Positions 10,328-57,614 are shown, counted from the stretch's first letter. The stretch: DNA of 57,614 nucleotides from an uncultured Candidatus Saccharibacteria bacterium (GCA_964520645.1 CAZFND010000004.1:1-57614); one strand, 5' to 3'. The notes: generated from the letters alone by a model not told the origin. A program made the numbers and translations.

Positions 10328-10335
10328 TGTATAAT
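10325..10335 (+). promoter_or_regulatory. TAGTGTATAAT promoter-like 11-mer, copy 1 of 3
   Basis: Identical 11-mers occur at 10325, 47694 and 51118. TATAAT at 10330-10335 lies ~75 nt upstream of the ATG of GC-rich ORF 10411. Confidence 0.45.
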
Positions 10336-10410
10336 AGTGTAAGAATATGTAAATCGCCTACGATGTAGTGGGCGACACATTGAACAGAATTTTACACATG
10401 TGGGGCATAT

Positions 10411-10788: not shown

Positions 10789-10805
10789 TGGTTCTGTCGC
10801 ACGTT

Positions 10806-10842
10806 AACCCCCACCCGAGATAATCGGGTGGGGTTTTGTTTT
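10806..10842 (+). terminator. Rho-independent terminator
   Basis: CCCCACCCGA (10808-10817) pairs with TCGGGTGGGG (10824-10833), followed by TTTTGTTTT. Confidence 0.8.
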
Positions 10843-10867
10843 ATATGCTGAGTTGAGATATGCTTAG

Positions 10868-12019: not shown

Positions 12020-12024
12020 CTCGT

Positions 12025-13155: not shown

Positions 13156-13156
13156 T

Positions 13157-14194: not shown

Positions 14195-14195
14195 T

Positions 14196-15952: not shown

Positions 15953-15954
15953 TT

Positions 15955-17869: not shown

Positions 17870-17884
17870 CGATACAATATAGCT

Positions 17885-18868: not shown

Positions 18869-18872
18869 TACC

Positions 18873-19952: not shown

Positions 19953-19962
19953 ATCAAAATAT

Positions 19963-21540: not shown

Positions 21541-22791
21541 TTAAATTCTTTTAAGTAAAAAGAGAGAAACGGCGAGATTAATAAATCGCGCTATGATTCG
21601 TGCGATAATGACTCCTACTAGACCAAGGGTATATGCAAACCCAATAAGCAATCCTATCTGTGCAATAGAAGCGGTAAGGCTAAAGTAATACAGTTCTTTT
21701 TTTGCCATTTGAGCATTGAGTGCTGTTTGAGGCAATGAAAAAAGACTTGGAATTAAAGTAAGAGCATATATTTGTGAATACCATACATACTGATGATATT
21801 TGGGGAATAGAATGCTGAACAAAAAAGGAGAGGCAAATATATAGATAAGAGTAATCGGAATCAATGCAATACTTAATAGAATAGTCCATTTGAAGACATG
21901 ATTTTTTAGATCATCTTTTTCTTTTACTGAATACTTTGGCATCGCAAGTGTAGAGAGTGACCGGGTCATAAATGTCTTAGCTTGATCTACCGGTGCTGTA
22001 GCAACAGAATAAATGGCCAAAGCACTGGCACCTACGACTTGAAATACTAGAATTTTATCTATAAGTGTCGCAACTGTACTGATCACATTTATGAAACTCA
22101 GATGGATCCCATTTTTGATTGCTTCAGGATCTTGAGAAGCTTGTGGGGAGATTTTTGATGCTAAATACCAGGTGAAAAATCCTCTAAATCCTGTCCAGAC
22201 AATGAAGTAGGTGAGAAGCATGCAATACACATTTTGAGTAAGTACTGCTACTCCTGCTAGCGCAAGGGTTGCTACTACTTGGCTGAGTGCGTATGAAAGT
22301 GTAGATTCTTTAAATTGCTTTTTCCCACTAAAGATAGCGTCATAAAGATTAAAAGAATCCATGAACGGAGTGAAGAGTGCAACAACAATAAAGCTCCAAC
22401 CTAATAGCCAATTTCCATGTGCTGCATAATAGATGGCAGTAATAATAGAGGCTAGCCCGCCAAGCATTCCAAAGCGAATACGAGTTTTAAGGGCAGGGAT
22501 GAAACTACCATCATTTCCCCGAGCGATTGCTTGTGTAATAGATGTTCCCATGCCATTCAAGTTGGCAATCGCAAAAAATCCTGCAACCGAAAGTACGTAT
22601 TTAAATACCCCAAGTGTCTGAGGTAATAGGAAGTTGGCGTATACAATAGAAAGTACAAATGAAGTAGTAGCAAGTACTACTTGGCTCACTCCTACCCAGA
22701 AGCTGCCTTTAGCGATATATACAAGATCTGCTTTTATATAAGCGCCTATTTTATTCAAAAAAGTATGAATATATTGGTTTAACTGAGCCAT
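21541..22791 (-). CDS. Wzx-type oligosaccharide flippase (MOP/PST family)
   Basis: 416 aa with 12-14 TM helices and polysaccharide-biosynthesis-protein-like topology, set inside a glycan cluster. Confidence 0.75.
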   Translation of the reverse strand: MAQLNQYIHTFLNKIGAYIKADLVYIAKGSFWVGVSQVVLATTSFVLSIVYANFLLPQTLGVFKYVLSVAGFFAIANLNGMGTSITQAIARGNDGSFIPALKTRIRFGMLGGLASIITAIYYAAHGNWLLGWSFIVVALFTPFMDSFNLYDAIFSGKKQFKESTLSYALSQVVATLALAGVAVLTQNVYCMLLTYFIVWTGFRGFFTWYLASKISPQASQDPEAIKNGIHLSFINVISTVATLIDKILVFQVVGASALAIYSVATAPVDQAKTFMTRSLSTLAMPKYSVKEKDDLKNHVFKWTILLSIALIPITLIYIFASPFLFSILFPKYHQYVWYSQIYALTLIPSLFSLPQTALNAQMAKKELYYFSLTASIAQIGLLIGFAYTLGLVGVIIARIIARFINLAVSLFLLKRI

Positions 22792-22837
22792 AATGCCTTG
22801 ATTATAGCATTTTTTAGGGTATTATTAAGTAAATTTT

Positions 22838-23197
22838 ATGGCAATATTATTTCTCATTCTTGCATTTATTATGAATGGAAGTGCAAGTATTTTGCTCAAG
22901 TTGCATGCTGAACGAGGCTTCAGTACAAAAAATATACTAAGCATTAGCATTATTACTCAAAATATTTATTTCTTTTTAGCGCTTTTCTTGTTTGCATGTA
23001 ATCTAATTTTTTATACGTTAGCGCTTACCAAGCTTCCATTATCAACTGCATATCCAATAATGGTAGTCATGAGTTTTCTTATTGTGAACTCTTTTTCGTT
23101 TTTTTATTTTAAAGAGCACATCACATTGCCTCAAGTAATAGGCTACATATGTATCGTAGTTGGAATTACTCTCGTTATCGGATTTTCTAAAATTTAA
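22838..23197 (+). CDS. 4-TM mini-transporter (SMR/ArnE-F/GtrA-like lipid-linked sugar flippase candidate)
   Basis: 119 aa with four evenly spaced TM helices. Neighbours are a GT2 and a polytopic transferase. Confidence 0.6.
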   Translation: MAILFLILAFIMNGSASILLKLHAERGFSTKNILSISIITQNIYFFLALFLFACNLIFYTLALTKLPLSTAYPIMVVMSFLIVNSFSFFYFKEHITLPQVIGYICIVVGITLVIGFSKI

Positions 23198-26092: not shown

Positions 26093-28312
26093 ATGACATT
26101 AAACACTATTCTTCGTAGATGTATTTTACTCGGACTTTTTATTGTTCCATTTATTCCGTTTGTTGTTGCTAATAGTTTGTTTTTCCCATTTATTACAGGA
26201 AAAGCATTTACGTTTAGAATTATTGTAGAAATAATACTTGGTTGTTGGGCAGTGTTAGCACTTACAGATCGTAAGTATATGCCTAAGGGATCTGCATTAC
26301 TTTATGGTTTTGCTGCATTCGTAGCTCTTATTGCACTCTCAGACATCTTTGGAGCAAATCCATTTAAGAGTTTTTGGTCAAACTTCGAGCGAATGGAAGG
26401 TTTAATTACCCTTATCCATCTTTTTGCATACTTTGTTGTTGCTTCAACAGTGCTTTCTACAGAGAAACTTTGGAACTGGTTCTGGACTGCATCAATTGTT
26501 GCTAGTTTAGGAACTACTATTTTTGGTTTCATGCAATTAGCAGGGAAGTTTAAGATCAATCAAGGAGGTGCACGTCTTGATGCTACATTTGGAAATGCTT
26601 CATATCTTGCTATCTATGTTCTATTCCACATATTTATTACTGCTTTCATTCTAGTATCGCCACAACTCTTTTTACTTCTTCCATTCACAGCAAAAAAGGA
26701 TGCAAAGTATTGGAAATGGGGGATTGGGGCAGTAATTATTATTCTTGAGGGTATTATTCTTTACTACACTGCAACTCGAGGTGCATTCTTGGGGTTAATT
26801 GGAGGTGGAATATTAACGTCAATTCTCATTATTGTTTTTGAAAAGAATAATACTCTTGTAAAAAAGATCTCAATGGCGGTGCTTATTGGAGCAGTTGCAG
26901 TTGTAGGAGCATTCTTCTTGTTTAAGAATTCTTCATTTGTTACCAAGAGTCCTGTGCTTTCTCGATACTCATCTATTTCTCTCAACGATCCGACAACAAA
27001 GTCACGATTCTTACTCTGGAATATGGCATACCAAGGATTTAAAGAACGACCGATCTTAGGATGGGGACAAGAAAACTTCAACTTTGTATTTAATAAATAC
27101 TATAGTCCAAAATTGTATGGTCAGGAGCAATGGTTTGATCGAACTCACAATATTATCTTCGATTGGCTTATTGCTGGGGGTATTCTCGGTCTTGGTTCAT
27201 ATTTGTTCTTTTATGCTGCTCTTATCTGGTATATCTGGAAGCGAAGAGAAGGGGTCACAGCATTTTCAGTAGCAGAAAAAAGTATTCTTACTGGTATGCT
27301 TCTTGGATATTTCATTCACAACTTATTTGTGTTCGATAACTTAGTAAGTTATGTGATGTTTATGTCAGTTGCTGCATATGTATATTCGAGAACTGCATTG
27401 TGGAACAAAGAGTACACATCATCAGGATCTGAGAATAGATTTATTGGTCCTGTTGCACTTGCTGTTACTCTTGTTGTTATTTATTTCTTCAATGTGATTC
27501 CAATACAAAGTAATAAGACATTAATTGCTGCAATTACTCCCTATGGAGATGGAAAAGTTGATAAAAATATTGCAGCTTTTAAAGAAGTAATTGCTACTGG
27601 TTCTATTGGCACTGCAGAAGCTCGAGAGCAACTTCTCGGTATGGCTGGACAGTTATTGGATCAACCTCAAACAGCACTCAACGCGCAGAGTAGATCAGAC
27701 TTAATTGCTCTTGCAGGAGATGAAATGAAGAAGCAAATTGCTCAAGTGCCAAATGATGCACGGTTCCAGGTGCTTATGGGATCATTTCTCACGCAGCAGG
27801 CAAAGTATGCAGAGGCATTACCGTATCTTTCTAAAGCCGCAGACCTTTCTCCACAAAAGCAAACTATTCTTTTTGCAAAAGGCATTGCTTACATTGGTAA
27901 TCAAGATTATCCTCGTGCTCTTGAAACATTTAAGAAAGCATATGACCTTGAACCAAAGTATACTGAATCTCTTATCCAGTATGCAGCTGCAGCCCTCTAT
28001 GCAAAAAATGATACTCTTGCACAAGAATTATTAAAAAAGCTAGATCCACAAACAGTAATTCATGATGATAGAATTTTGCGAGCATATTATATAACAGGTC
28101 AAACTAAACCGCTCCTCGCTATTTGGAAAGAACGTCTCGCTCAAAATCCTACAGATCCACAATTACACCTTTCATTAGCGGCAGCATACCTTCTCGCAAA
28201 TGATCGAAAGAATGCAATAGCAGAAATTCAAGCAGTTATTAAGCTCGAGCCTGGGTTTAAAGAACAAGGAGATTTCTACATTAAAGAAATTCAGGCAGGA
28301 CGAAATCCGTAA
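26093..28312 (+). CDS. Wzy_C (O-antigen-ligase/O-OTase-like) polytopic membrane protein with C-terminal TPR repeats
   Basis: 739 aa. Motifs GARLDATFGNASYLAIYVLF, TATRGAFLG, ILGWGQENF, then about 250 aa of TPR-like repeats. Paralog of 43609..46014. Confidence 0.75.
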   Translation: MTLNTILRRCILLGLFIVPFIPFVVANSLFFPFITGKAFTFRIIVEIILGCWAVLALTDRKYMPKGSALLYGFAAFVALIALSDIFGANPFKSFWSNFERMEGLITLIHLFAYFVVASTVLSTEKLWNWFWTASIVASLGTTIFGFMQLAGKFKINQGGARLDATFGNASYLAIYVLFHIFITAFILVSPQLFLLLPFTAKKDAKYWKWGIGAVIIILEGIILYYTATRGAFLGLIGGGILTSILIIVFEKNNTLVKKISMAVLIGAVAVVGAFFLFKNSSFVTKSPVLSRYSSISLNDPTTKSRFLLWNMAYQGFKERPILGWGQENFNFVFNKYYSPKLYGQEQWFDRTHNIIFDWLIAGGILGLGSYLFFYAALIWYIWKRREGVTAFSVAEKSILTGMLLGYFIHNLFVFDNLVSYVMFMSVAAYVYSRTALWNKEYTSSGSENRFIGPVALAVTLVVIYFFNVIPIQSNKTLIAAITPYGDGKVDKNIAAFKEVIATGSIGTAEAREQLLGMAGQLLDQPQTALNAQSRSDLIALAGDEMKKQIAQVPNDARFQVLMGSFLTQQAKYAEALPYLSKAADLSPQKQTILFAKGIAYIGNQDYPRALETFKKAYDLEPKYTESLIQYAAAALYAKNDTLAQELLKKLDPQTVIHDDRILRAYYITGQTKPLLAIWKERLAQNPTDPQLHLSLAAAYLLANDRKNAIAEIQAVIKLEPGFKEQGDFYIKEIQAGRNP

Positions 28313-43138: not shown

Positions 43139-43146
43139 ATTACCAC

Positions 43147-43496
43147 TTTGCATCGGATAATTGCGTCCTAAGAGTAATCGAGGGATGAGGAAAGTCCGAA
43201 CACTTGCCTGCCTTACGGCAGACAGCAGGGTAGCGGGTAACGCCCGTCTGGAGCAATCCACGAGGTGCGAGCAGAGACGTCTTGGTCTGAAAAGACCGGA
43301 CATCCATTTATGGATGAGTCTTCATATAAGCTTAGGGCTTGCTCTGAGCGAAGTCGAAGAGTGAAACGGCTAAATCCTTACTTAAGTGCAAGGCCGTGTC
43401 CCGAGAGTAATCGCGGGAAGAGCTGCTTGACCCTGTGAGCAATTACAGGGCTAGATAAATAATTATCGATAACAGAATTCGGCTTATAGATGCAAA
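43147..43496 (+). ncRNA. rnpB: RNase P RNA, bacterial type A
   Basis: Universal motifs GAGGAAAGTCCG (43187-43198) and ACAGAATTCGGCTTAT. GGGTAACGCCC element present. P1 pairing TTTGCATC (43147-43154) with GATGCAAA (43489-43496). A GC-rich island in an AT-rich context. Confidence 0.9.
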
Positions 43497-43503
43497 GCAT
43501 ATC

Positions 43504-43608: not shown

Positions 43609-46014
43609 ATGGAACCTGAAAAAAAGTCTTCACGTCTTAACAATCGTTTTAATTATCTCGTTGTAGGCATTGTCCTTGCGCTTGTTGGTATTATTCCACT
43701 CTTTTTCATTCCGTCTGTGTTTATTGCCCTCCCATTTGCTAAAGCTATACTTCTCTATGGTGTAGTGCTTGTTGCGCTCTGTTTGTGGGTTATTGCTCGA
43801 CTTCAAGAAGGTAAGGTGAGTATTCCTCGACACTTCTTTTTTGTAGCGCTTGCCTTGGTTCCTATAAGTTATATTGCTTCAGCACTTTTTTCTGGTTCTC
43901 GTGGTACGTCATTTTTTGGCCAAGGATTTGAAACTCAGACTGCTGGTTTTATTTTCATTGCCTCACTTTTGACGTATATAACAGCGCAGGTCTTTAGTTC
44001 AAAGAAAAATATTACCTATGGCTATCTTGCATTTTTAGCCCCATTTCCTCTTATAGCTCTCTATCATATTGCTCGCTTTTTCTTTGGTGCATCTTTTCTC
44101 TCGTTTGGAGTTTTTGTTACCAATACTGCATCATTATTAGGAGGATGGAATGATTTGGGAATTTATGTAGGTTTAGTTGCTCTGTTTTCATTTGTTACAT
44201 TTGAATTATTACCACTTGAGCGATGGATGAGATCGATTCTTATCGGATTTTTTGTTGTATCCCTCTTTTTGCTCACGGTTATTAACTTTACGTTGAGTTG
44301 GTATGTATTAGGAACAGTGGCATTACTCTTCTTTATTTATAATTTTATTTTTAGTAGATCTAAGCTACAGGACAGTACTGGACGTAATAACATATCGATA
44401 ATTTCTATTATAGTTATCGTTGTTGCTATAGTTTTTATCATGATGAAAGGGAATATTTACAATACTCTTTCATCTTCACCGCTTAAGCTTAGTTTCTTTA
44501 ATGCATTGAACATATCAAATACAGAAGTTCGGCCTTCATGGATGAGTACTCTTTCAATTGCAAAGCATGCTTACGCACAAAATCCTATTTTGGGTATTGG
44601 ACCAAATCGTTTTGCAAATATCTGGCAACTCTGGAAGCCAAGCGATGTAAATACTACAATCTTTTGGTCAACTGATTTTAATTCTGCGACTGGATTTGTT
44701 CCAACTTCTATGATTACAACCGGTGTTGTGGGACTTATTGCTTGGCTCGCATTTCTCGGTTTATTGCTCTATGCAGGAATTGTGTCAATTTTTAAAAAGA
44801 GAGATACCATGAGTCAGTATCTTACTGTTTCCTCACTTATTTCTGCACTCTATTTGTGGGTGTTTAGTATTATGTATATACCATCAGCGACTATCTTAGT
44901 ACTTACATTCTTTTTCACCGGTCTCTTTTTTGCTTCTCTTATAGAAAATGGATCAATCAAAACTGTGACTTTTGATTTTATGAAAGATTCACGAGCAAGT
45001 TTCATTTCTGTAATTGTGCTTATTCTTGTAATTATAGGTACACTTGCTATCGGATCTATTGAGATCAAAAAATTCACAAGTGCATTTTACTTTAATAAAG
45101 GATTAGCTTTAGCAAATAATAATGGCAAAATAGACGATGTGGAATCCTATTTTAATAAAGCAATACAATATAATGAAGCTGATCTATACTATCGTGTATT
45201 AAGTAATATTGCTCTCGCTAAGCTCAATCTTCTCGTCTTAAATCAAAATTCTATTGCATCTACTACTCTTCAAACTCAATTTACAACTACATTTGCATCA
45301 GCGCTCTCTTCTGCTCAGCAAGCACTTGCGCTTGATCCAACAAATTACCAAAATCTTGTAGCACAAGGTCTCGTATATGATGTGCTCTTCCAGCTTGGTA
45401 ATACAGAGGCATATAGCAAAGCTCAACAGTCATATGCACAAGCAGCAGTACTCAATCCTACAAATCCTGCAATTCTTCTCAATCTCGCTCGTCTTGAAGT
45501 CGCACATAAAGATCTTCCAAAAGCTAAAGACTACATAGGTAAAACCTTAACTCTTAAGGGAAATTATACGGATGCTATATTCTTGCTTTCACAAATTCAG
45601 GTAGCAGAAGGGGATATAAAAAATGCGATAAAGTCTGTCCAAGCTGAAGTATCTATTGCTCCAAACGATCCAGGTATTTATTTTGAATTAGGATTGTTGT
45701 ATTACAACGACAAACAATATGGCAATGCTGCTGCTACGTTTGAACAAGCTATAATGCGAGCACCTGATTATGCGAATGCTAAATATTTCTTGGGTCTTTC
45801 TTACTATCGCTTAAATAAAGTAAGTGAAGCGATCAAGCAATTTCAAGATATAAAAGTAACAAATTCTGATAACAAAGAAGTTGATCTTATCCTCACTAAT
45901 TTAAAGGCAAATCGAGATCCATTTGCAAACGTAAAAGCTCCACTCGATAATAAGCCAGAAAAGCGTGCACAGCTTCCAATAAAAGAAAGTAGTAATACTA
46001 GTACGACTGAATAA
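43609..46014 (+). CDS. Wzy_C (O-antigen-ligase/O-OTase-like) polytopic membrane protein with C-terminal TPR repeats
   Basis: 801 aa. N-terminal ~480 aa are polytopic (ILGIGPNRF loop). C-terminal TPR units include ALDPTNYQNL, LNPTNPAILLNLA, IAPNDPGIYFELG, RAPDYANAKYFLG. Confidence 0.75.
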   Translation: MEPEKKSSRLNNRFNYLVVGIVLALVGIIPLFFIPSVFIALPFAKAILLYGVVLVALCLWVIARLQEGKVSIPRHFFFVALALVPISYIASALFSGSRGTSFFGQGFETQTAGFIFIASLLTYITAQVFSSKKNITYGYLAFLAPFPLIALYHIARFFFGASFLSFGVFVTNTASLLGGWNDLGIYVGLVALFSFVTFELLPLERWMRSILIGFFVVSLFLLTVINFTLSWYVLGTVALLFFIYNFIFSRSKLQDSTGRNNISIISIIVIVVAIVFIMMKGNIYNTLSSSPLKLSFFNALNISNTEVRPSWMSTLSIAKHAYAQNPILGIGPNRFANIWQLWKPSDVNTTIFWSTDFNSATGFVPTSMITTGVVGLIAWLAFLGLLLYAGIVSIFKKRDTMSQYLTVSSLISALYLWVFSIMYIPSATILVLTFFFTGLFFASLIENGSIKTVTFDFMKDSRASFISVIVLILVIIGTLAIGSIEIKKFTSAFYFNKGLALANNNGKIDDVESYFNKAIQYNEADLYYRVLSNIALAKLNLLVLNQNSIASTTLQTQFTTTFASALSSAQQALALDPTNYQNLVAQGLVYDVLFQLGNTEAYSKAQQSYAQAAVLNPTNPAILLNLARLEVAHKDLPKAKDYIGKTLTLKGNYTDAIFLLSQIQVAEGDIKNAIKSVQAEVSIAPNDPGIYFELGLLYYNDKQYGNAAATFEQAIMRAPDYANAKYFLGLSYYRLNKVSEAIKQFQDIKVTNSDNKEVDLILTNLKANRDPFANVKAPLDNKPEKRAQLPIKESSNTSTTE

Positions 46015-47711: not shown

Positions 47712-50700
47712 GTGAAACAGAAGTTATTGTATATTTTTCTTCTTCTCTTATTCTTTTTGCCTACATTTGCAGGGGCATCTACTACTGATGGCACAATTGA
47801 TCCTACATACAATCGTGCTCGGTTTATAAATGGAACGGGTGGGTATATCAACTTTGCAGCATCGCAAGGTAATGTTCATGTGACCGATGCTGGAATGACG
47901 GGCTATGCCTGGAGTGAAAATTATGGATGGATCAATCTCAATCCTGCTAATGGAGGAGTCTTGAATGATGCTGAAGGAACACTAAGTGGCTATGCTTGGG
48001 GTGAAAAAATGGGATGGATAAATTTCAAACCTACAAATGGTGGTGTAACGATTGATGCCAATGGTAATTTTTTGGGTTATGCATGGAGTGAAAAATTGGG
48101 ATGGATTTCTTTCAACTGTGCAACAGAAGGGAATTGTGGCAGCACAAGCTACAAGGTGATGACTGATTGGCGTCCATTAACCGTACGCAATAGTACAAGT
48201 ACACCAGGAGGTGGAGGTTCGGGCGGCGGCGGTGGAGGGGGTGGTGGTTGTGTTACGGGATGTACGCCGCCGCCTTCTTTTGACGTCTGTCCAAATATTG
48301 CCGGAAATCAAACGTCTGTTCCACCTGGCTTGGTAGTAAACCTCGCAGGTAGTTGTGTTGCACCTCAAGCATGTCTTGCATTGCCACAACAGCTCAAACA
48401 GAGTCTTGATGTCATGCTTGTGATAGATCTCTCTGGTAGTATGAACGATACTATTGGTGGAGCTACAAAAATTTCTCAAGCTAAGGCAGCAGCGATAACC
48501 TTTGTAAATAGTCTTGATCCTAATTCGGATAAGGTAGGTCTCGCAACATTTGCAAATACAAGTAGATTAGAAAACGCTCTTACGAGTGTATTTGGTCCTG
48601 TAAACACAAAAATAAATAGTCTCGTTGTAAGTGGTGGTACAAATATTGGTGATGGAATTCAGACTGCTCACAACGAACTTGTTGCTCATGGACGTTCAAA
48701 TGCAAAGCATATTATTATTCTTTTGACTGATGGATATGTGAATGCCCCTGGAACAAATCCATATGGATATGCTGTGGGTACTTCAAATACAGCTAAATCT
48801 GGAGCAGATATTATTTATACTATTGGACTAGGATCAACAGTAGATGCCTCATTTTTGAAAACGGTAGCAACGCAAGCAAGTAATTACTATTATTCTCCAA
48901 CGGGTAGTGATCTCCAAAATATTTATCTTCAAATTTCTGCGATCGAATGTACATCACAAACTTCGAATGTTTCAGGAAAAATAATACAAGATCAAAATGG
49001 AAATGGAGTGTATGATCAAGGTGAATTGGGATTTTCAGGAGCTACTATAGATATTATAAGTACCAACGCTTCGCAACCGATGCGTGTTGCCGTAACACTT
49101 TCTGACGGTTCCTTCAATTTTTCTGGCGTTGCACCAGGAGATTATCTTGTCTGTTCAGAGCAGCAGGGAAGTTATACTCAAACATATCCGCTACTCAACA
49201 ATGGTTGTTTCTCTATATCTATCATTCAAGGATATAGTGTTAACGAATTAGTCTTTGCCCTTACATCGGGCGCTCCTCCTACATCTGGAGATTCATGTAA
49301 CAATATTTCAGGTATACAAACGAGTATTCCACTAGGATTGGTATCTGACGGATCAGGTAATTGTATTCCACCAGGAGTTACTCCAACCGATCTTTGCTCT
49401 AATATTTCAGGTAATCAATTTTACATTCCAGACGGAATGATTTTGGATGAACAAGCTCAATGCGTAATTCCGCTCCAACCAGTAGATGTTTGCCCTAATA
49501 TGGCCGGCAATCAGGCATTCCTTCCTGCTGGAATGGAATATGATAGTCTTGGCAATTGTACTCCAATCACAAATGCAGATCTTTGTCCTAACATTGCAGG
49601 AGCTCAAACTACCGTTCCTTCAAATATGTCGATTAATAGTCAGGGTGATTGTGTGACTATTGTAAGCGATATGTGTCCAAATATTATGGGCACGCAAGGA
49701 GTAGTTCCATTAGGAATGGTGATGGATATAGATGGTAATTGTGTCGCTGCAACTGCAACACGAGATGTTTGTGTAAATATTTCAGGTACTCAAAATTCGG
49801 TGCCCGCAGGTATGACCGTAGATGGTGATGGCAATTGTACATTAATTCCACTATCAACTGATGTATGTCCCAACATTACAGGAGAACAATCATCAATTCC
49901 TGGAGGTATGAGATATGATTCAAATGGCAATTGTATTACACCTCCGCCTCCATGTGTTGGTATTTTGTGTAATCTTCCTACAATTGATATTCCATCACTT
50001 CCACCATTACCTTCGTTGCCACCTGTATTTCAGGGATATGTAGATAGTGGAACTAATACTGTGGGTGATATTCAGCGAGCACTTCAAGATATTTATAAAG
50101 ATCCAAATGTGAGTATCACGGGTAAAGCATTTAGTTTAATTGGACTTATTGTTGGATTATTGGGTGCGCTTTCTGCACTCTTCCTGACACCACTTTCATT
50201 GGCAGAATTGGTTCTCTTACCATTTAGATTGTGGAGTTTGTTAATGAGTCTTCTTGGATTCAAAAAGAAATATCGACCATGGGGAACTGTATACGATAGT
50301 GTGACAAAGCAGCCACTTGATCCTGCATATGTAGTGCTCAAAGATAGCCAGGGCAATGATATCTCTACTGCGATTACTGATCTTGATGGACGATACGGCT
50401 TTCTTACTCAAGGAGGTTCATTCAGTCTTGTTGCTAATAAGACAAATTACACATTCCCTTCAGAAAAATTGGCAGGGAAGACTTCTGATGAATTGTATAC
50501 CAATCTCTACTTTGGAGGGCTTGTGACAGTAGATGCGAAGACTGCTGTGATTGATAGAAACATTCCTCTCGATCCACAAAATTTTGATTGGAATGAGTTT
50601 GCAAAGAGGAATAAAAATTTGATGAAGTTTTATTCTGCACGAGATCGAATGTTTCATAAACTTGCTGATCTATTCTTCAGACTTGGTTTCATTTGTGCGC

Positions 50701-51053
50701 TTGTTGGTGCATTTGTAACTCCAGAGCCATACAACTTTATTATCGTTGCCGCATATCTTGTAATTATCGTTCTTCGAAAAATGGGAATTAGAGGAAGAAG
50801 TTATGGATTCATCACAGAAACTGAAACAGGAAATCCACTTTCATTTGCGATCATTAGAATTATTTCTCCTAGTCTTCGAAAAGAAATTTTCCACAAAGTT
50901 GCAGATCAATTTGGTCGTTACTACTGTCTTGTTCCAAAAGGAAATTATATTGTTCGTATCGAACGTAAGAATCCAGATGAATCGTATAGTGTCGTTGCAG
51001 AAATGGCAGTCCTCGCTCCTCGAGGTATCATCAATCAAGGATTCAAAGTCTAG
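47712..51053 (+). CDS. Giant surface protein: signal peptide, GYAW-GWI repeats, Gly linker, vWA domain, SdrD/Cna-B-like domain, Cys-repeat array, then TM helices alternating with CarboxypepD_reg-like beta-sandwiches
   Basis: 1113 aa. Signal KLLYIFLLLLFFLPTFAGA, MIDAS VIDLSGSM, GKIIQDQNGNGVYDQGE. TM pairs lie near aa 800-850 and 960-1000. WGTVYDSVTKQPLDPAYVVLKD...DLDGRYGF. The start is GTG and is uncertain; TTG 47727 is possible. Confidence 0.85.
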   Translation: MKQKLLYIFLLLLFFLPTFAGASTTDGTIDPTYNRARFINGTGGYINFAASQGNVHVTDAGMTGYAWSENYGWINLNPANGGVLNDAEGTLSGYAWGEKMGWINFKPTNGGVTIDANGNFLGYAWSEKLGWISFNCATEGNCGSTSYKVMTDWRPLTVRNSTSTPGGGGSGGGGGGGGGCVTGCTPPPSFDVCPNIAGNQTSVPPGLVVNLAGSCVAPQACLALPQQLKQSLDVMLVIDLSGSMNDTIGGATKISQAKAAAITFVNSLDPNSDKVGLATFANTSRLENALTSVFGPVNTKINSLVVSGGTNIGDGIQTAHNELVAHGRSNAKHIIILLTDGYVNAPGTNPYGYAVGTSNTAKSGADIIYTIGLGSTVDASFLKTVATQASNYYYSPTGSDLQNIYLQISAIECTSQTSNVSGKIIQDQNGNGVYDQGELGFSGATIDIISTNASQPMRVAVTLSDGSFNFSGVAPGDYLVCSEQQGSYTQTYPLLNNGCFSISIIQGYSVNELVFALTSGAPPTSGDSCNNISGIQTSIPLGLVSDGSGNCIPPGVTPTDLCSNISGNQFYIPDGMILDEQAQCVIPLQPVDVCPNMAGNQAFLPAGMEYDSLGNCTPITNADLCPNIAGAQTTVPSNMSINSQGDCVTIVSDMCPNIMGTQGVVPLGMVMDIDGNCVAATATRDVCVNISGTQNSVPAGMTVDGDGNCTLIPLSTDVCPNITGEQSSIPGGMRYDSNGNCITPPPPCVGILCNLPTIDIPSLPPLPSLPPVFQGYVDSGTNTVGDIQRALQDIYKDPNVSITGKAFSLIGLIVGLLGALSALFLTPLSLAELVLLPFRLWSLLMSLLGFKKKYRPWGTVYDSVTKQPLDPAYVVLKDSQGNDISTAITDLDGRYGFLTQGGSFSLVANKTNYTFPSEKLAGKTSDELYTNLYFGGLVTVDAKTAVIDRNIPLDPQNFDWNEFAKRNKNLMKFYSARDRMFHKLADLFFRLGFICALVGAFVTPEPYNFIIVAAYLVIIVLRKMGIRGRSYGFITETETGNPLSFAIIRIISPSLRKEIFHKVADQFGRYYCLVPKGNYIVRIERKNPDESYSVVAEMAVLAPRGIINQGFKV
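47901..48117 (+). repeat. Three tandem ~25-aa repeats GYAW[SG]E[NK]xGWI[NS][LF]xPxNGGV
   Basis: The three copies are GYAWSENYGWINLNPANGGV, GYAWGEKMGWINFKPTNGGV and GYAWSEKLGWISFNC. Confidence 0.8.
49296..49934 (+). repeat. Seven tandem Cys-bounded ~28-aa repeats (C-x-N-[IM]-x-G-x-Q-x3-P-x-G-[ML]-x5-7-C); an eighth copy lies at 48288..48356
   Basis: Examples: CNNISGIQTSIPLGLVSDGSGNC, CPNMAGNQAFLPAGMEYDSLGNC, CPNITGEQSSIPGGMRYDSNGNC. Confidence 0.85.
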
Positions 51054-51235: not shown

Positions 51236-53146
51236 ATGGTCTCTGCAGTGGTTTTTATTCTCGTCACAATGTCACTACTCCTGTTCGTGTGCTTTGGAGT
51301 AGGTCTTGCTTTTTCGCGGCCTCTCCATCTTTTTCAACAGGGCACCAAAGCCCAGTTGATCAACTGTAATGCGATTGGTTTGGGTTTGATCTTGTTGATC
51401 TTGCAGTTTGTCCACTTCGTTTTGCCAATAACTTCGAATTTGATTCTGTGGTTCATGGCAATTGCGATCGTGAGCATTGTCGCTGCGTCACTTTCTGGAT
51501 CTTTGCGGATTACTCACATGTCGTGGAGGATGGTTGTTGCGAGTGTTTTGTTTGTTTCGTTGCTCGCGATCGTGGCCTGTCACTCTTTGGGATTTTTCCA
51601 GGTGAGCGACGGAATTGCTTACCATTGGAATCTTGTGAAGTGGACTAACCAGTATCCTATTATTCCGGGGTTGGCTAACGTCTACGAGAGGCTTGGGTCG
51701 AATAACTCGATCCATTTGTTCGCTGCAATGCTCAACACTGGCTTGCTGAGTGATCATGCAAACTTGGTCAATTGTTTCATGATTAGCTTGATGCTCGTCC
51801 ATGTAGCAGCAGGGTTCGTTGGAATGTCCCAGCGGCGAGGCTCGCAATGGGGAAATATAATGGGAGTTGCTTGCCTTCTCCCGATTTTTTACCACATTTT
51901 TGCCAATCCAGCAGGGACAGCGGATATTGGATATGTCTCATCTGACGAACCCATGTCTTGGATGGTGTTTCTGGGATTGATGTCTGTTGTTCACTTTATG
52001 TTTGGTGCAGAGAAATCCGATAAACCTTCTCACTTGGCTACTGCAGTGATCTGTTTTGCTACTGCAGCAACGATAAAACTGAGTGGTATATTCGTTTTTG
52101 CTGTCGCAGCCATGTTGCTGATTATTCTTCTGGTGAAAAGCCGGGAGTATCGTACATGGCGCTATGCGACACTTTACGGAGTGGCCACTCTGATGATTGT
52201 CTGTTCAGCCGTCCGAGGGGTAATTATTTCGGGTTTGCCGTGGTTCCCAATCGATAAGGGATTTGATGTCCCTTGGCGGTTGCCATCGAAAGAGGTAGCT
52301 GCTGGGAGGTTCCTCATTGATGTTCACGCAAGGTTCAATGGGAACATGAATCACACTCAAACAGAGTCCTATTTGTTCCACCCAGACTTCCTTGGTCAAT
52401 TCACATGGAGTAACTCTGGATGGGGGATTCTGATCGCTACCTTCTCACTTCTCATGGCCATTGTGGTCATGTATAAATATCAGCGTCGCCAAATGATGGG
52501 TTCTTTCAAGAAGGTGTGCTGTGTTTACACTCTCATCATCGGGCCGTTGTTGTTCTGGATTGTAACGGCGCCAGCGATGAGATTCGCATGGCATTTCTTC
52601 TGGCTCATTCCCATCGTTGCGTTGGTTTACCTTTTCTATGTGACGGAGGGGCTCAACCTCTCTAATTTCAAAGAAAGGTGGCTAGTACGTTTGATGGCTC
52701 CAGCAATGGTGTGTTTGTGGGCGCTGTTCTATGTTGGAAGTCCTGTGATGAACCTTACAGGAACAGCTTTTTACAGCGGGCCTTCTGTTGCTGGTCATGA
52801 GTTTTGGAATCTGGTCACTGCTAAACGTAGTTCCGAACAAGAGCGTCAGGCTCAGTTTGGGTTCTATTACCCACGAGCACTTGTCGGAGGTAAGCTTATC
52901 AGGGTCCAAGCTTCATCAGGATTGATATTTGTACTTCCTGATGCGCCTCAGAGTGCTACACTTGAATTGCTGATTGGAGATTTGCCGATTACTCCTCATG
53001 CGATTCCAACAAGTAGTCTCATTGGAGATGTTGGGTTGCTTAATCCCACGAAGGGAGTCGCAGGAGGGTTCTATCGAATCTCCTCAGAAAAGGGAGGTAT
53101 ATTGACAAGGTTGCCAACTGTCGTCAAACAGGTGGCATCGAGATAA
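51236..53146 (+). CDS. GC-rich polytopic membrane protein (O-antigen-polymerase/GT-C-like candidate), compositionally foreign
   Basis: 636 aa with about 14 TM helices and a soluble ~130-aa C-terminus. Loop DGIAYHWNLVKWTNQYPIIPGLANVYERLGSNNS. Strong SD AAGGAG 7 nt upstream. About 48-50% GC. Confidence 0.7.
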   Translation: MVSAVVFILVTMSLLLFVCFGVGLAFSRPLHLFQQGTKAQLINCNAIGLGLILLILQFVHFVLPITSNLILWFMAIAIVSIVAASLSGSLRITHMSWRMVVASVLFVSLLAIVACHSLGFFQVSDGIAYHWNLVKWTNQYPIIPGLANVYERLGSNNSIHLFAAMLNTGLLSDHANLVNCFMISLMLVHVAAGFVGMSQRRGSQWGNIMGVACLLPIFYHIFANPAGTADIGYVSSDEPMSWMVFLGLMSVVHFMFGAEKSDKPSHLATAVICFATAATIKLSGIFVFAVAAMLLIILLVKSREYRTWRYATLYGVATLMIVCSAVRGVIISGLPWFPIDKGFDVPWRLPSKEVAAGRFLIDVHARFNGNMNHTQTESYLFHPDFLGQFTWSNSGWGILIATFSLLMAIVVMYKYQRRQMMGSFKKVCCVYTLIIGPLLFWIVTAPAMRFAWHFFWLIPIVALVYLFYVTEGLNLSNFKERWLVRLMAPAMVCLWALFYVGSPVMNLTGTAFYSGPSVAGHEFWNLVTAKRSSEQERQAQFGFYYPRALVGGKLIRVQASSGLIFVLPDAPQSATLELLIGDLPITPHAIPTSSLIGDVGLLNPTKGVAGGFYRISSEKGGILTRLPTVVKQVASR

Positions 53147-53177: not shown

Positions 53178-53210
53178 AAAAGCGCCGAGCTTACACTCGG
53201 CGTTTTTTTC
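53178..53210. terminator. Bidirectional rho-independent terminator between convergent genes
   Basis: GCGCCGAG (53182-53189) pairs with CTCGGCG(C), flanked by an A-run and T7. Confidence 0.85.
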
Positions 53211-53235: not shown

Positions 53236-53640
53236 TTACTTTTCTAATACTCTAAGAATTTCTGAAACAATTTCGTCTGGAGTGATAGTAGCTTTGATCA
53301 AAAACGCTGTAGCCCCTAGATCGGTCGCTTGCTTGATATCTTTTTCTTCACCGAGATTAGAAAAGACAACAATAGGAGTTTTCTTGAAAGCTGAATCATC
53401 TCTAAGTTCTTTTAAAATATCAAATCCACTCATATCAGGAAGGAGGAGATCGAGGAGAATAAGATCAGGTTTTTCTTTTTGAATAGTACTTACTGCTTCA
53501 CCACCTTTGCTTACCAAACTTACATTAGCTTTTGCTCCGATAAGCTTCTTTACAACAAGACTTCCAAGGAAGGTGTCATCTTCTACTATTACAATTTTTT
53601 TACCTGCGAGTGTTAATGCTGAATCTTTGCTTGTTGTCAT
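53236..53640 (-). CDS. Stand-alone response-regulator receiver domain (CheY-like)
   Basis: 134 aa. Motifs IVEDD, phospho-acceptor LILLDLLLPDMSG, VVFSNLG, FLIKA. No output domain. Confidence 0.9.
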   Translation of the reverse strand: MTTSKDSALTLAGKKIVIVEDDTFLGSLVVKKLIGAKANVSLVSKGGEAVSTIQKEKPDLILLDLLLPDMSGFDILKELRDDSAFKKTPIVVFSNLGEEKDIKQATDLGATAFLIKATITPDEIVSEILRVLEK

Positions 53641-53760
53641 ATATTTTAGTGATTTGTATCCCTCTATTCTACTCTAAAGTAGTTTCTATGGGAAGTATAA
53701 GTATAGATACTTCATACATGTGGAAAACTCCTTATTTTTCAACAATAATTTATGTATGCA

Positions 53761-53771
53761 TGTGATATAAT
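53761..53771 (+). promoter_or_regulatory. Extended -10 of TRTGn type (TGTGaTATAAT)
   Basis: Predicted +1 near 53778, 20 nt before ATG 53798. Confidence 0.45.
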
Positions 53772-53797
53772 TTGAGAGTGTATGTAATTAGTATGTA

Positions 53798-56700
53798 ATG
53801 AAGCAGTATAAAGATTTTGTAAATCTGAAATTCTTTGGTTCTATGGTTATTTTCATGGGATGTATTCTCATGGTTTTTGGCTTCGCTTCATTTGCATACG
53901 CTCTTCCATATTCTCCAGGTGAGACACTCGATCCAGGATGTACTCCTGGAACTGCAAATTGTACTGTTAGTAATGTAAGTATTGCCGATTATTTCATTGG
54001 TACAACAACCGCTACTTCTACATATGCTGGTGGAATCCAAACGACATCATTGTATGTGACTTCTTCAAGTGCATCATCAACATTTAATAATGGGATCAAT
54101 CTTTCTGGTGGTTGTTATGCAGTGAGTGGAACATGTTTGACCCCACTTACAAACAGCGTGACTGGGCTCACCTATAGTGGTGGAGCTTTGTCACTTACTT
54201 CTGGATACAACATTCCTCTCACTGCCTCAACAACAAACTGGAATAGTTTTTATGACACCCCATCATCACGGATTACAGCAGGAACAGGACTCAGTTGGAG
54301 TGGAAATACACTTAACGCTAGTGGAGGATCATCAGCATCTTCTACACTTTTGTCTGATACAAATACATTTAGTGCTACCAACACATTTTCGCAAGGTATA
54401 AGACTTGGTGCGTATTCCGTAATTGATCCTGTAAATGTAGATTTCAATTTTGCTGATCAAGGAGGGAATTCTAAAATCCGTTACAATTTAGGAGCATTTA
54501 CAATCCGTAATGGAGGAGGTAATACTACTTTAAATATAGATGGAAATGGATTGTTACAAATTTCGAATGTTTCAGGTTTAGAAAAGTTTCGTGTAGACGC
54601 ATCAACAGGAAATGTTGGTATTGGAACTACATCCCCATATGCAAAATTGTCAGTTGCAGGTGAGATAGTTGCTGCAAACTTCACAGGTACAACAACTGCA
54701 ACTTCAACTCTTGGAGGTGGATTGTCAGCTACACGTCTTCTTACAACAGCAACATCAACAATTGCTGGCATAAACCTCAATGCAGGATGTTACGCAATTA
54801 ATGGAACTTGTCTTTCATCAGGTGGTAGTGGAACAGTAACCTCAGTTGATATGACAGTGCCTACTGGTCTTTCAATTTCTGGTAACCCTATTACAACATC
54901 TGGAACATTAGCCCTTACTTACGCAAGTGGATACGCAGGAGTATTAACCGCTTCTACAACTAATTGGAACTCTTTCTACGACACTCCATCAACACGTATT
55001 ACTGCAGGAACAGGACTCAGTTGGAGTGGAAATACACTTAATGCTAGTGGAGGATCATCAGCATCTTCTACGCTTCTTGCTGATGCAAACACATTTAGTG
55101 GAAATAATGCATTTACAGGAACAAATAATTTTACTGGCAATCTTGGTGTAGGCACATCATCTCCATATGCCAAGCTCTCAGTTGCGGGACAAATTGTAGG
55201 TGCATACTTTACAGGAACAACCACAGCAACATCTACGCTTGCAGGAGGATTACAGACAAGTGCTTTGAATATCACATCATCAAGTGCATCATCAACGTTT
55301 AGTAATGGTATCAATCTTGCCGGTGGTTGTTATGCTGTGAACGGAAGTTGTATTACGGGAGGCGGAGGTGGTGGTGGATCAGGAACAGTAAGCTCGGGTC
55401 TATTTGGCCAATTGGCATGGTATGCCGCTGATGGCACAACCGTCTCAGGTACTTCGACTGGACGTCTCACGGTGGGATCGTTAAATGCTACATCTACTAC
55501 AGCCACCTCAACATTCTTAGGAGGTCTAAGCATTGGTACTACAACGTCCGAATCACGATTGCATGTTGCAGATAATTCTAATTATGTAATGACTCTTCAA
55601 AGAGCCTCTTCTACCTCTGCAGAAATTGCTCCTGTAAATAACCTTATCCGTTTTAGTAATGATGTTTCAACAGGCAAATATAATGGCTATATTGGTATGT
55701 CTGGAAGAGCTGGGGGAGGTGTCGTATATCTAGATCCAAGTGCAGATACATCAGTTCAATTAAATGTGGGTGGTGGAGCCACACATTATGGAGTTTTGAG
55801 TGATTTTTGTGCGACATTAACTGGACCTTATGCTAATTTGTGTGCTTCTAAGCATATAAATTATTATGATTACTTTAATACGGGCGGTGTAGGTGCTGGA
55901 GGTAACGATGGTACGTATGTGGATGGGAGTGGTACAGATATTTATGATATGAGTAATGTGAGTTTGAATGGACAAAAAGCAACTCGGATTACGATACGAG
56001 CATATGCCAGAAGTGGAGGTACTCCACAGGGAACTGTTAATATAAAAATTAATGGTGTAGCTCAAACAGCTCAAAATTTTGCTATGCCAAATGACAATAC
56101 TGTAGTCTGGAGTAGTTTCTCATGGAATGGATCGTTTACTCAATCGGATATTGATAGTTTACAAGTGGTTTTGACGGGTGGTACTTATCAGGTTACATTT
56201 GCTCTATTTGCTGAAGTTACCGTCCCAGATCCTACAACATCAGCGCTTGTATTTGCAACAAATCAGAATCCATCAGTTGAAGCATCAACAACAGAAAAGA
56301 TGAGAATCACTGCTCTCGGAGATGTGGGGATTGGACTTACTACTCCAGAATCACGTCTTCATATTTACTCAACAAATCAGCTCAATGATTATCTACTTAC
56401 TCTTCAGAGAGCAACATCATCACTTGCAAGCAACTTAATTAAATTTGCAGTAGGCACTAGTTCAGAACTCTATGGAGGTTATATTGGATTGCTTGGTAAA
56501 AGTGGAAGTGGTTCATTAACAAGTGCGTTAGATCCAAACGCAGATACTGCCACTGTAGAGTGGACTCCATCTACAGGTACGGATCACTATGCTGTTATCG
56601 ATGATGGTACGCAGCAGCCTACCACTCCTAATACAGCGGATTACATTAATCATTATTTGGACAATGGAGGATTTGGTACTGCTAGTGGCAGTGTTAATGA

Positions 56701-57614
56701 CGAGTTTGATATGGGAACAATAGCAAATATTAGTACTATCTCATCTATCACTTTATGGGTACATGGATATTACTATAATGATGATTGTGACGCCATAACT
56801 GCAACTGGAAATATAAAAATTGGCAGTACTTGGGAAACTCCACAAACCCTTAGCTTGAATGTCAATACTGGTGCCTGGACATCAATTACATTCTCTGGTG
56901 CAACAACGTCTGCAATGACGCAAAGTGATCTTGATAATCTTAAAGTTCGATTAACCTCTACTATTACTAATGCACGCAGTAATGGTTGTGAAAACAAAGT
57001 ACAGGCAATGTACTTAGAAGTTACATACTTGCGTGAATCCGCATCATCAAACCTCGTCTTCGGAACCAATGCTACCCCATATGTATCAACAACAACTGTA
57101 GAGCGACTAAGAATCACCACCGATGGAAACGTAGGAATTGGAACAAGTACACCTTGGGCAATGTTTTCAATTAACCCTACATCTACTCTCAATGCTGCAC
57201 CTTCATTTGTCATTGGATCATCCACTGGTACACGATTCATAGTAACCAATTCAGGAAATGTAGGCATAGGTACCTCTTCACCAACCGCTCAACTTTCAAC
57301 AACTGGCACCGTCAGATTTTCAAACTTTGGTTCAGGATCACTCCAGACAGATGCAAACGGAAACTTGTCGGTATCATCTGACGAGAGACTCAAGACAATT
57401 GTAAGTGACTTTGCAACAAGTACCAGTGTACTCGAGAAGCTCACTCACTTAAATGGAATCATCTACAAGTGGAACGAAGCCTCAGGACTCGATCAAGTCA
57501 ATGAATATGTTGGATTCACTGCACAGAATGTAGAAAGCTACTTCCCACAACTTGTCGGCCAGAATCCAAATGGCTACAAGTCACTTAACTATGCAGCATT
57601 AACTGTCCCATTAG
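53798..57614 (+). CDS. Giant repetitive S/T/G-rich fibre protein with a C-terminal tail-fibre intramolecular-chaperone (S74-like) domain; 3' end lies outside the window and the ORF is not in the ORF track
   Basis: The frame is open for 1272 codons from ATG 53798 to the window end, re-checked at 12 lines. N-terminal anchor MVIFMGCILMVFGFASFAYA. Recurrent GNVGIGTTSPYAKLSVAG motifs. C-terminal SSDERLKTIV...IIYKWNE...GFTAQNVESYFPQLV. Confidence 0.85.
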   Translation, partial: MKQYKDFVNLKFFGSMVIFMGCILMVFGFASFAYALPYSPGETLDPGCTPGTANCTVSNVSIADYFIGTTTATSTYAGGIQTTSLYVTSSSASSTFNNGINLSGGCYAVSGTCLTPLTNSVTGLTYSGGALSLTSGYNIPLTASTTNWNSFYDTPSSRITAGTGLSWSGNTLNASGGSSASSTLLSDTNTFSATNTFSQGIRLGAYSVIDPVNVDFNFADQGGNSKIRYNLGAFTIRNGGGNTTLNIDGNGLLQISNVSGLEKFRVDASTGNVGIGTTSPYAKLSVAGEIVAANFTGTTTATSTLGGGLSATRLLTTATSTIAGINLNAGCYAINGTCLSSGGSGTVTSVDMTVPTGLSISGNPITTSGTLALTYASGYAGVLTASTTNWNSFYDTPSTRITAGTGLSWSGNTLNASGGSSASSTLLADANTFSGNNAFTGTNNFTGNLGVGTSSPYAKLSVAGQIVGAYFTGTTTATSTLAGGLQTSALNITSSSASSTFSNGINLAGGCYAVNGSCITGGGGGGGSGTVSSGLFGQLAWYAADGTTVSGTSTGRLTVGSLNATSTTATSTFLGGLSIGTTTSESRLHVADNSNYVMTLQRASSTSAEIAPVNNLIRFSNDVSTGKYNGYIGMSGRAGGGVVYLDPSADTSVQLNVGGGATHYGVLSDFCATLTGPYANLCASKHINYYDYFNTGGVGAGGNDGTYVDGSGTDIYDMSNVSLNGQKATRITIRAYARSGGTPQGTVNIKINGVAQTAQNFAMPNDNTVVWSSFSWNGSFTQSDIDSLQVVLTGGTYQVTFALFAEVTVPDPTTSALVFATNQNPSVEASTTEKMRITALGDVGIGLTTPESRLHIYSTNQLNDYLLTLQRATSSLASNLIKFAVGTSSELYGGYIGLLGKSGSGSLTSALDPNADTATVEWTPSTGTDHYAVIDDGTQQPTTPNTADYINHYLDNGGFGTASGSVNDEFDMGTIANISTISSITLWVHGYYYNDDCDAITATGNIKIGSTWETPQTLSLNVNTGAWTSITFSGATTSAMTQSDLDNLKVRLTSTITNARSNGCENKVQAMYLEVTYLRESASSNLVFGTNATPYVSTTTVERLRITTDGNVGIGTSTPWAMFSINPTSTLNAAPSFVIGSSTGTRFIVTNSGNVGIGTSSPTAQLSTTGTVRFSNFGSGSLQTDANGNLSVSSDERLKTIVSDFATSTSVLEKLTHLNGIIYKWNEASGLDQVNEYVGFTAQNVESYFPQLVGQNPNGYKSLNYAALTVPL
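54278..54345 (+). repeat. 68-nt near-identical intragenic repeat, copy 1
   Basis: GCAGGAACAGGACTCAGTTGGAGTGGAAATACACTTAA(C/T)GCTAGTGGAGGATCATCAGCATCTTCTAC. There is one mismatch to copy 2. Confidence 0.9.
55004..55071 (+). repeat. 68-nt near-identical intragenic repeat, copy 2
   Basis: Same core as 54278..54345. It lies within a ~245-aa tandem protein duplication. Confidence 0.9.

Follow-up and report, generated by a model that had tools for sequence, protein, structure and literature searches.

The first descriptions of S74 domains came from endosialidases and other tailspike depolymerases, and their Pfam family, PF13884, bears the name "Chaperone of endosialidase". Domains of this family trimerize, template the folding of the triple-stranded shaft upstream of them, and then cleave themselves off. 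Phage S74 fibres and tailspikes, such as endosialidase K1F, the L-shaped fibre of T5, and the S16/T4-type fibre represented by 6F45, combine a C-terminal S74 domain carrying the sequence SSDxRxK with a long shaft of repeats, and their genes are mosaic and recombine. A cellular counterpart is the MAT (mosaic adhesive trimeric) family of Bdellovibrio bacteriovorus, which comprises 13 S74 and 8 non-S74 fibres that have a signal peptide and a conserved N-domain, are displayed on the surface, and recognize prey glycans; the SDxxxK Ser-Lys motif is the catalytic signature of the S74 domain (Caulton et al. 2024, PMC10769870). The subject of this report is an open reading frame (ORF) that starts at position 53798 of contig CAZFND010000004.1 (GCA_964520645.1; 57,614 nucleotides (nt) in total, hereafter the window) and runs to its last base. 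It is read here, with reasonable though not full confidence, as the 5′ part of a chromosomal Patescibacteria gene for a homotrimeric fibre that is secreted to the cell surface and follows the plan of phage tail fibres.

The C-terminal S74 domain, the repetitive shaft, and the mosaic gene of the phage proteins all recur in the window fibre, which differs from them in having a Sec signal peptide, a neighbourhood of housekeeping genes, and two lateral jelly-roll inserts for which no family has been described. With MAT fibres (e.g., Bd3182 and Bd2133) it has in common a length of about 1000 or more residues, a signal peptide, a conserved N-terminal region, rungs of the GxVGIGT type, an SDxxxK terminus, and membership of a multi-copy mosaic family; both, moreover, come from bacteria living on other bacteria. 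The differences concern the phylum and the position of the globular domains, which are lateral in the shaft here and at the tip in MAT fibres. The conserved N-domain of MAT fibres is beta-rich, about 130 residues long, and homologous in all of them. The window fibre has a conserved N-terminal region of its own with a PGETLDPxCxPGxxNC motif, in place of which other homologues use different N-termini. Bacteria of the candidate phyla radiation (CPR) presumably have a single-membrane envelope, unlike Bdellovibrio. The window protein may therefore be said to work like a MAT fibre, by analogy, and is not filed as a member of that family.

The frame opened by ATG 53798 contains 1272 codons without a stop plus one nucleotide (3817 = 3 × 1272 + 1), as a preliminary description of this DNA had proposed; retranslation met no stop, and at the base composition of the window a stop-free run of this length has a chance probability of about 1e-36. 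An in-frame TAG at 53789, the nearest upstream stop, makes this ATG the earliest possible start. The same description held the frame to be the largest ORF of the window, which is correct (the runner-up, at 47712-51053, has 1113 residues), and explained its absence from the ORF list by the lack of an in-window stop; ORFs that run off an end of the source are indeed unlisted, and only antisense shadows appear over the region, such as 54976-55314 and 56773-57267, both on the minus strand. The N-terminal sequence given there is present, all four quoted examples of the recurring motif were found (residues 271, 447, 841, and 1153) together with a fifth at residue 1110, and the asserted richness in Thr, Ser, Gly, Asn, and Ala is seen in the computed composition (T 14.4%, S 12.5%, G 12.3%, N 7.8%, and A 8.3%). 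That this is a real gene and that it encodes an S74-type fibre is very probable.

The window probably holds the 5′ ~85% of the gene. The estimate of about 230 missing codons derives from the paralogue P0001, which is 98% identical to the last 60 residues of the window protein and runs 230 residues further, and from 53 homologues in which 101-526 residues (median 248) follow the catalytic serine, compared with 79 here. Those 230 residues of P0001 comprise the remainder of the chaperone along with a coiled-coil-like stretch, a module of the form GFFxxLTVG...C...C, and a tail rich in S, T, and P. P0001, P0014, and P0086 all end in this conserved post-chaperone module (GFFxxLTVG...PxGITL...G.PYC...G.C) followed by an S/T/P-rich tail, and the module is kept even in P0086, which has no S74 motif. 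P0001 itself is not encoded within the window (tblastn). Metagenome contigs were scanned for an extension of the gene, by exact match to its last 55 nt, which gave no match, and at the protein level with the last 124 residues, which gave only relatives of at most 63% identity; neither scan extended it. The near-identity to P0001 right where the window stops looks like a contig break at a repeat.

Behind the shaft lies a domain that the preliminary description, right about the giant fibre, had overlooked: a Peptidase_S74 chaperone and autoprotease with the SDxxxK motif, cut by the window end. PF13884 matches residues 1194-1253 over profile positions 1-57 of 58, scoring 42.4 bits where the cut-off is 22 (expectation value (E) 8.6e-11), and the Ser-Lys dyad motif reads S1194-D-E-R-L-K1199, with S1193 directly before it. 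Residue-level alignment to the distal subunit of a phage long tail fibre (6F45) keeps the SSDxRxK sequence (SSDRRIK there) and the helices that follow it. The S74 motif is present in 53 of the 120 top homologues. The earlier characterization as phage-tail-fibre-like is borne out by this Pfam match, by two PHROG tail-fibre families (phrog_9942, E 7.6e-12; phrog_18345, E 1.1e-4), and by PDB sequence matches to a phage long tail fibre and to Bdellovibrio MAT fibres; NCBIfam gave no match to the fibre.

The kinship with tailspikes also raises the reading of a secreted tailspike-like enzyme or effector, e.g., a polysaccharide depolymerase, that would act on the surface of a partner cell. It can draw on the origin of S74 domains among endosialidases and tailspike depolymerases and on those family members that carry pectate-lyase-type domains (P0080, P0109 (PF12708), and P0103 (PF13229)). 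Yet neither Pfam nor NCBIfam detects a catalytic domain in the 1272 residues, whose globular parts are only jelly rolls of non-enzymatic appearance, and an enzyme is accordingly a very improbable reading of this protein.

The fibre N-terminus is probably a cleaved Sec signal peptide. The protein has one hydrophobic segment only (residues 12-33), which ends at AYA↓LP, and an AxA-type site stands just before the PGETLDP motif in every one of the 13 homologues that share this type of N-terminus, so that cleavage, called here by rule, is favoured over the signal anchor named in the preliminary description, which was probably mistaken on this point. The predicted mature chain (residues 36-1193) has a mass of ~118 kDa and an isoelectric point (pI) of 4.6. 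A type IV pilin-like signal was also considered and was rejected, the motif G↓F/M-T-L-I-E being absent from the N-terminus. The PGETLDPxCxPGxxNC motif is found in 13 of the 120 top homologues, and the N-terminal region is 70-76% identical to that of P0001. Homologue N-termini come in at least three interchangeable types: some (P0005, P0021, P0052, and P0106) begin with a helix-turn-helix-like sequence (...YTxDYIxxLAREGKI...) and lack a signal peptide, and others have INYQGKLT after an initial signal peptide.

The claim that the protein is repetitive holds at both the protein and the DNA level. Self-comparison in 60-residue fragments maps three kinds of module. Module A occurs in three copies (residues 44-137, 276-379, and 449-534), every one of which ends in GGCYAxxGxC. 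Module B occurs in two copies (residues 122-198 and 356-440) that are up to 88% identical and read "...TASTTNWNSFYDTPSxRITAGTGLSWSGNTLNASGG"; a pair of direct repeats in the DNA, D1, spans 54221-54388 and 54947-55114 (84% identical). Module C, of ~270-300 residues, occurs in two copies that are ~40% identical (residues 564-865 and 830-1132) and is a fibre rung broken by a ~170-residue insert. Five GNVGIGT-type rungs punctuate the protein; they align to rungs in the crystal structure of Bd2133 (8OND) with E 1.2e-4 for the whole protein and independent domain E-values of 0.016-0.08, and 8ON4 and 8OML weakly (E 0.26-0.4). The 12 cysteines of the mature part are all arranged in local pairs, six in number, and four of these pairs are CxxxxxxC loops; Cys48-Cys55 and Cys106-Cys113, for example, have i/i+7 spacing. 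Such local pairing fits an extracellular protein.

For the inserts of module C, the AlphaFold2 model of insert 2 is an all-beta sandwich or jelly roll with a predicted local distance difference test score (pLDDT) of 91.7 and a predicted template modelling score (pTM) of 0.88. Pfam found nothing significant in 15 insert copies, the best match being Enas (E 0.011, under its cut-off); a word-index search for homologues of insert 2 by itself returned nothing, and none of the 120 top whole-protein homologues contains the insert. An exhaustive profile search reached 16,382 cluster representatives, nearly all of them on the generic rung only, and located the insert solely in P0002 (one copy), P0121 (6179 residues, eight copies), P0138 (four), and P0213 (two). 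In Foldseek searches with the insert model, the best matches are uncharacterized phage proteins (BFVD, E 6.8e-12, template modelling (TM) score 0.77), and the PDB offers a faint likeness, at TM scores of at most 0.48, to carbohydrate-binding modules, MAM, domain III of Cry toxins, and the tip of the MAT fibre Bd2734. Judged by fold class, the inserts are most likely lateral knobs and candidates for ligand binding, probably of glycans. Larger relatives exist as well: P0121, with its eight jelly rolls, lies on an NCBI contig of 326,818 bp, and locus L004 has a fibre ORF of 4937 residues at 8342-23155, downstream of Obg-GatB.

The setting of the gene is cellular. The window encodes Obg, GatB, RNase P RNA, a tRNA, MurJ, MurB, SecA, enolase, iPGM, and envelope-polysaccharide genes. 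Among 890 homologues of the fibre, those with a named source are mostly from Patescibacteria (Paceibacterota, Kaiserbacteria, and Taylorbacteria), many of them titled "tail fiber domain-containing protein", and seven related loci from GTDB genomes all belong to metagenome-assembled genomes of Patescibacteria. Patescibacterial proteins titled "tail fiber domain-containing" or "DUF5011 domain-containing" (e.g., P0010, P0019, P0014, and P0086) are of the same family by sequence, with E down to 1e-70, and are found at the same locus in GCA_034680565.1 (L107). This genome keeps MurJ (77% identical), the VWA protein (58%, full-length), and, at the same position and in the same orientation, a minus-strand response regulator of 134 residues (73% identical). 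The regulator is followed by two tandem fibres, P0086 (1398 residues, no S74) and P0014 (1163 residues, S74), and then by a LamG protein, LepA, and DivIC. These positional fibres are ~52% identical to the window fibre in the first ~115 residues only and ~26% identical elsewhere; on this comparison the fibre locus is stable and its cargo fast-evolving. Partial synteny is seen in L001 and L004-L007, and in L001, L004, L006, and L007 Obg-GatB or TPR-MurJ lies near fibre genes. The cellular window and the synteny with L107 together argue strongly against a prophage gene, with the DNA downstream of the window copy unseen, and a chromosomal origin in Patescibacteria (CPR) can be held with high confidence.

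The fibre is also a mosaic. Its best homologue changes from segment to segment (P0086, P0001, P0002, P0029, P0056, and P0110), and exact blocks, of 131 residues in common with P0002 and of 68, 47, and 40 residues in common with P0001, stand amid sequence that is 30-55% identical. These blocks and the tandem pair in L107 mark a multi-copy mosaic family. At the DNA level, the 131-residue block is a stretch of 393 nt with 99.0% identity to the P0002 gene and four differences, all synonymous, and its flanks drop abruptly to ~54% and ~43%; it is a recent recombination tract. P0002 is a fibre of 1979 residues whose module C, with its insert, is 40-42% identical to that of the window fibre and whose shaft region is 54% identical over ~450 residues. 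It differs from the window fibre in its N-terminus, which bears the BppL_N receptor-binding-protein motif, in a Gly_rich_2 domain, and in a non-S74 tip that is kept in viral relatives.

The element that encodes P0002 (Logan SRR14271331, SRR14271335, and SRR14271340; L088 1-24330, L089 1-18159, and L090) was recovered in two runs as contigs of exactly 40,528 bp, which are 100% identical over 16.5 kb at an offset of 1,610 nt; the offset amounts to a circular permutation and indicates that the element is circular. It encodes a tyrosine integrase, the only match that PHROGs and Pfam gave for nine other genes of the element, and P0002 sits among genes without cellular homologues. Viral genomes in IMG/VR, several of which are 34-40.6 kb in size, encode relatives of P0002 and of its 491-residue neighbour. 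The viral relatives of P0002 keep only its N-terminal ~76 residues and its C-terminal tip and not the central shaft that resembles that of the window gene. Capsid or terminase hallmarks were not found on the element, and its viral nature is argued from circularity, the integrase, BppL_N, and the IMG/VR relatives; the element probably represents a phage of Patescibacteria that has not been cultivated. Most simply, a phage-like element that infects this lineage would carry a chimeric fibre with a shaft acquired from the cellular fibre pool, a direction of transfer that we infer. On this reading, the fibre family diversifies by segmental recombination that includes exchange with receptor-binding fibre genes of phage-like elements.

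This exchange bears on whether the window gene could itself encode the receptor-binding tail fibre of a phage or prophage, a virion part lying at the edge of a prophage that starts at the window end. The S74 domain, the PHROG and phage long-tail-fibre matches, the 99% tract and module C in common with P0002, an insert fold closest to phage proteins, and a downstream region outside the window would all be in keeping with such a gene. The N-terminus, however, is a Sec signal peptide and not a virion-attachment sequence, with no BppL_N or other docking domain found there (P0002 does have BppL_N); the 53 kb upstream is wholly cellular; and the L107 fibres lie at the same position between housekeeping genes, with MurJ, the VWA protein, and the response regulator on one side and LepA and DivIC on the other. 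A single-sequence scan of IMG/VR with the window fibre returned no viral relative, and the viral relatives of P0002 lack the common shaft. A virion fibre is very unlikely on this evidence.

The exact blocks may also be taken as the mark of an ORF that is partly an assembly artefact, in which paralogous fibre genes were collapsed or patched into a chimera, and a window that stops inside sequence 98% identical to P0001, the usual pattern where a contig breaks at a repeat, agrees with that. What speaks for a genuine chain is the uninterrupted frame of 3.8 kb, a module order that agrees with family members, and the character of the 393-nt tract, which is internal and in frame and nevertheless differs synonymously from P0002; mosaic blocks are, besides, the expected product of true gene conversion too. 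There is only a slight chance that the ORF is such a chimera.

The chromosomal fibre favoured here would be made in five steps. The chain would be exported by Sec and lose its 35-residue signal peptide. The S74 chaperone would trimerize and nucleate the folding of the beta-rich shaft from the C-terminus, as is established for the domain family. The Ser1194/Lys1199 dyad would cut just before Ser1194, freeing the chaperone and tail and leaving the mature chain. The module-mosaic shaft, stapled by its CxxxxxxC loops, would then present two lateral jelly rolls per chain and six per trimer, which their fold suggests to be ligand-binding. Finally, the fibre would most likely contact partner or host cells or other surfaces, as an episymbiont counterpart of the MAT prey-recognition fibres. 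For an adhesion or host-recognition role, the chances appear about even.

Several points weigh against this reading. The gene is incomplete: its end, with the stop codon and the remainder of the S74 domain, lies outside the window, as do the genes that follow it. Trimerization and autocleavage are predicted for the fibre from domain membership alone, and an AlphaFold2 monomer model of the whole of module C copy 2, built from three sequences, was poor (pLDDT 45.6). The likeness to MAT fibres is confined to generic rungs with marginal E-values, and that of the inserts to carbohydrate-binding modules is weak, at the TM scores given above. Of the features that could hold the fibre on the cell after signal cleavage, neither a sortase motif (LPXTG) nor a second transmembrane segment is present in it or in the full-length relatives P0001, P0014, and P0086, which also lack a hydrophobic C-terminus that could act as an anchor. 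The 99% tract might, in principle, have been introduced as a patch during metagenome assembly.

A structural component of the envelope, S-layer-like or forming a wall sheath, would need no specific ligand recognition, and its variability would reflect evasion of phages or predators. An abundant, T/S-rich, acidic, secreted protein would suit such a role, as would the neighbouring MurJ, Wzy_C/TPR protein, and LIC_10190-family membrane protein and the fast evolution at a conserved locus. S74 chaperones, on the other hand, occur in trimeric fibres and spikes of elongated form and are not known from lattices (PMC10769870), the architecture is that of a shaft with lateral jelly-roll knobs, and multi-copy mosaic families are typical of recognition proteins; an envelope component is thus unlikely, if less so than a virion part or an enzyme.

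How the ultrasmall CPR/Patescibacteria find and bind their hosts is largely obscure. Only type IV pili are so far reported to be implicated in CPR host binding, and only in Saccharibacteria (PMC12206443, PMC9894109). The literature searched contains no description of such fibres in Patescibacteria, in which the family is annotated and functionally unstudied. The window gene is a concrete candidate from this very large family; processing of its product is predicted at S1194/K1199, and its two inserts are well-folded, putative ligand-binding domains. S74-processed trimeric fibres are known and relatives of this one are already automatically annotated; on the present comparisons, the new elements are the lateral jelly-roll inserts and the phage-chromosome exchange tract. 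The 393-nt exchange connects an uncultivated virus family to a host by sequence, which is rarely possible, and suggests that the fibres of cells and those of viruses can evolve together as a single pool of modules. A broader and rather speculative proposal, which we consider doubtful, is that Patescibacteria other than Saccharibacteria recognize and hold their partners by chromosomally encoded, S74-processed "tail fibres", as a CPR counterpart of the MAT system, and that these fibres and the receptor-binding fibres of phages infecting the same bacteria draw on one actively recombining pool of shaft and jelly-roll modules; if true, the tract would directly tie a family of uncultivated ~40-kb phages to its host.

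Coordinates of the fibre gene, its predicted parts, and the adjoining upstream genes (window numbering)
Feature	Coordinates	Strand	Basis or remark
Fibre gene, 5′ part	53798..57614	+	1272 codons, open to the window end; ~230 codons probably missing
Probable Sec-type signal peptide, residues 1-35	53798..53902	+	n-region K2/K5/K11, h-region residues 12-32, AYA↓LP
Conserved N-terminal region, residues 36-137	53903..54208	+	PGETLDPGCTPGTANC motif (PGETLDPxCxPGxxNC), then module A copy 1 ending GGCYAVSGTC
Shaft modules: B copies, A copy 2, GNVGIGT rung 1 (residue 271)	54161..55117	+	Self-comparison; DNA repeats
Recombination tract, residues 297-427, 393 nt	54686..55078	+	99.0% nt identity to the P0002 fibre gene
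Module A copy 3 (residues 449-534) and GNLGVGT rung 2, then poly-Gly linker	55142..55399	+	Self-comparison
Module C copy 1 (residues 564-865)	55487..56392	+	Rung, ...TLQRASS...NLIRF...GYIG..., insert 1, ...ALVFATN...TEKMRIT..GDVGIG; self-comparison, three-way alignment with P0002
Jelly-roll insert 1 (residues 641-809)	55718..56224	+	Insert hidden Markov model, independent E-value 5.5e-73
Module C copy 2 (residues 830-1132)	56285..57193	+	Self-comparison, alignment with P0002
Jelly-roll insert 2 (residues 905-1078)	56510..57031	+	AlphaFold2, 15-copy alignment
Two terminal GNVGIGT rungs (residues 1110 and 1153) up to the predicted cleavage site	57125..57376	+	Align to 8OND beta-helix rungs, 8ON4/8OML
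Peptidase_S74/intramolecular chaperone, first 79 residues, S1194-D-E-R-L-K1199	57377..57613	+	Pfam PF13884; cut by the window end
Intergenic region, AT-rich, 157 nt, presumed fibre promoter region	53641..53797	.	Common to the divergent response-regulator gene
Response regulator, single-domain CheY-like, 134 residues, divergent from fibre	53236..53640	-	Pfam Response_reg E 2.4e-21
LIC_10190-family polytopic membrane protein	51236-53146	+	NCBIfam E 1.6e-46; between the VWA gene and the response regulator
VWA + SdrD_B + two CarboxypepD_reg protein, 1113 residues, GTG start	47712..51053	+	Pfam; signal-peptide-like N-terminus

Upstream of the fibre, a strong terminator-like hairpin at 53178-53207 marks the 3′ end of the preceding plus-strand gene, so that the fibre gene would form its own transcription unit. 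Sigma-70-like matches in the intergenic region were weak and no better than in shuffled sequence. The divergent response regulator may regulate the fibre locus.

The preliminary description placed a "vWA giant" adjacent to the fibre within a dedicated attachment arsenal. The VWA gene is in fact two genes away, past the terminator and the divergent regulator, but the order MurJ-VWA-response regulator-fibre is kept in the related genome; an "attachment locus" for this neighbourhood is therefore put forward as a hypothesis. The VWA protein, which belongs to this conserved neighbourhood, is a candidate adhesin, and in L005 a VWA-like gene adjoins a fibre. The LIC_10190-family gene, which is absent from the syntenic L107, might modify the envelope or T/S-rich surface proteins. 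A hint of the DNA beyond the window end comes from L107, where a Laminin_G_3/Toxin_R_bind_N protein of 698 residues (14094-16190, plus strand) directly follows the two fibres.

Elsewhere in the window, all on the plus strand, are a bacterial class A RNase P RNA between GatB and a TPR gene (43145-43502, 112 bits), one tRNA (785-857), two large TPR-containing membrane proteins (26093-28312 and 43609-46014), one of them with a Wzy_C O-antigen-ligase domain, and a HerA/TrwB-like ATPase (DUF87/TrwB_AAD_bind; 7269-9182).

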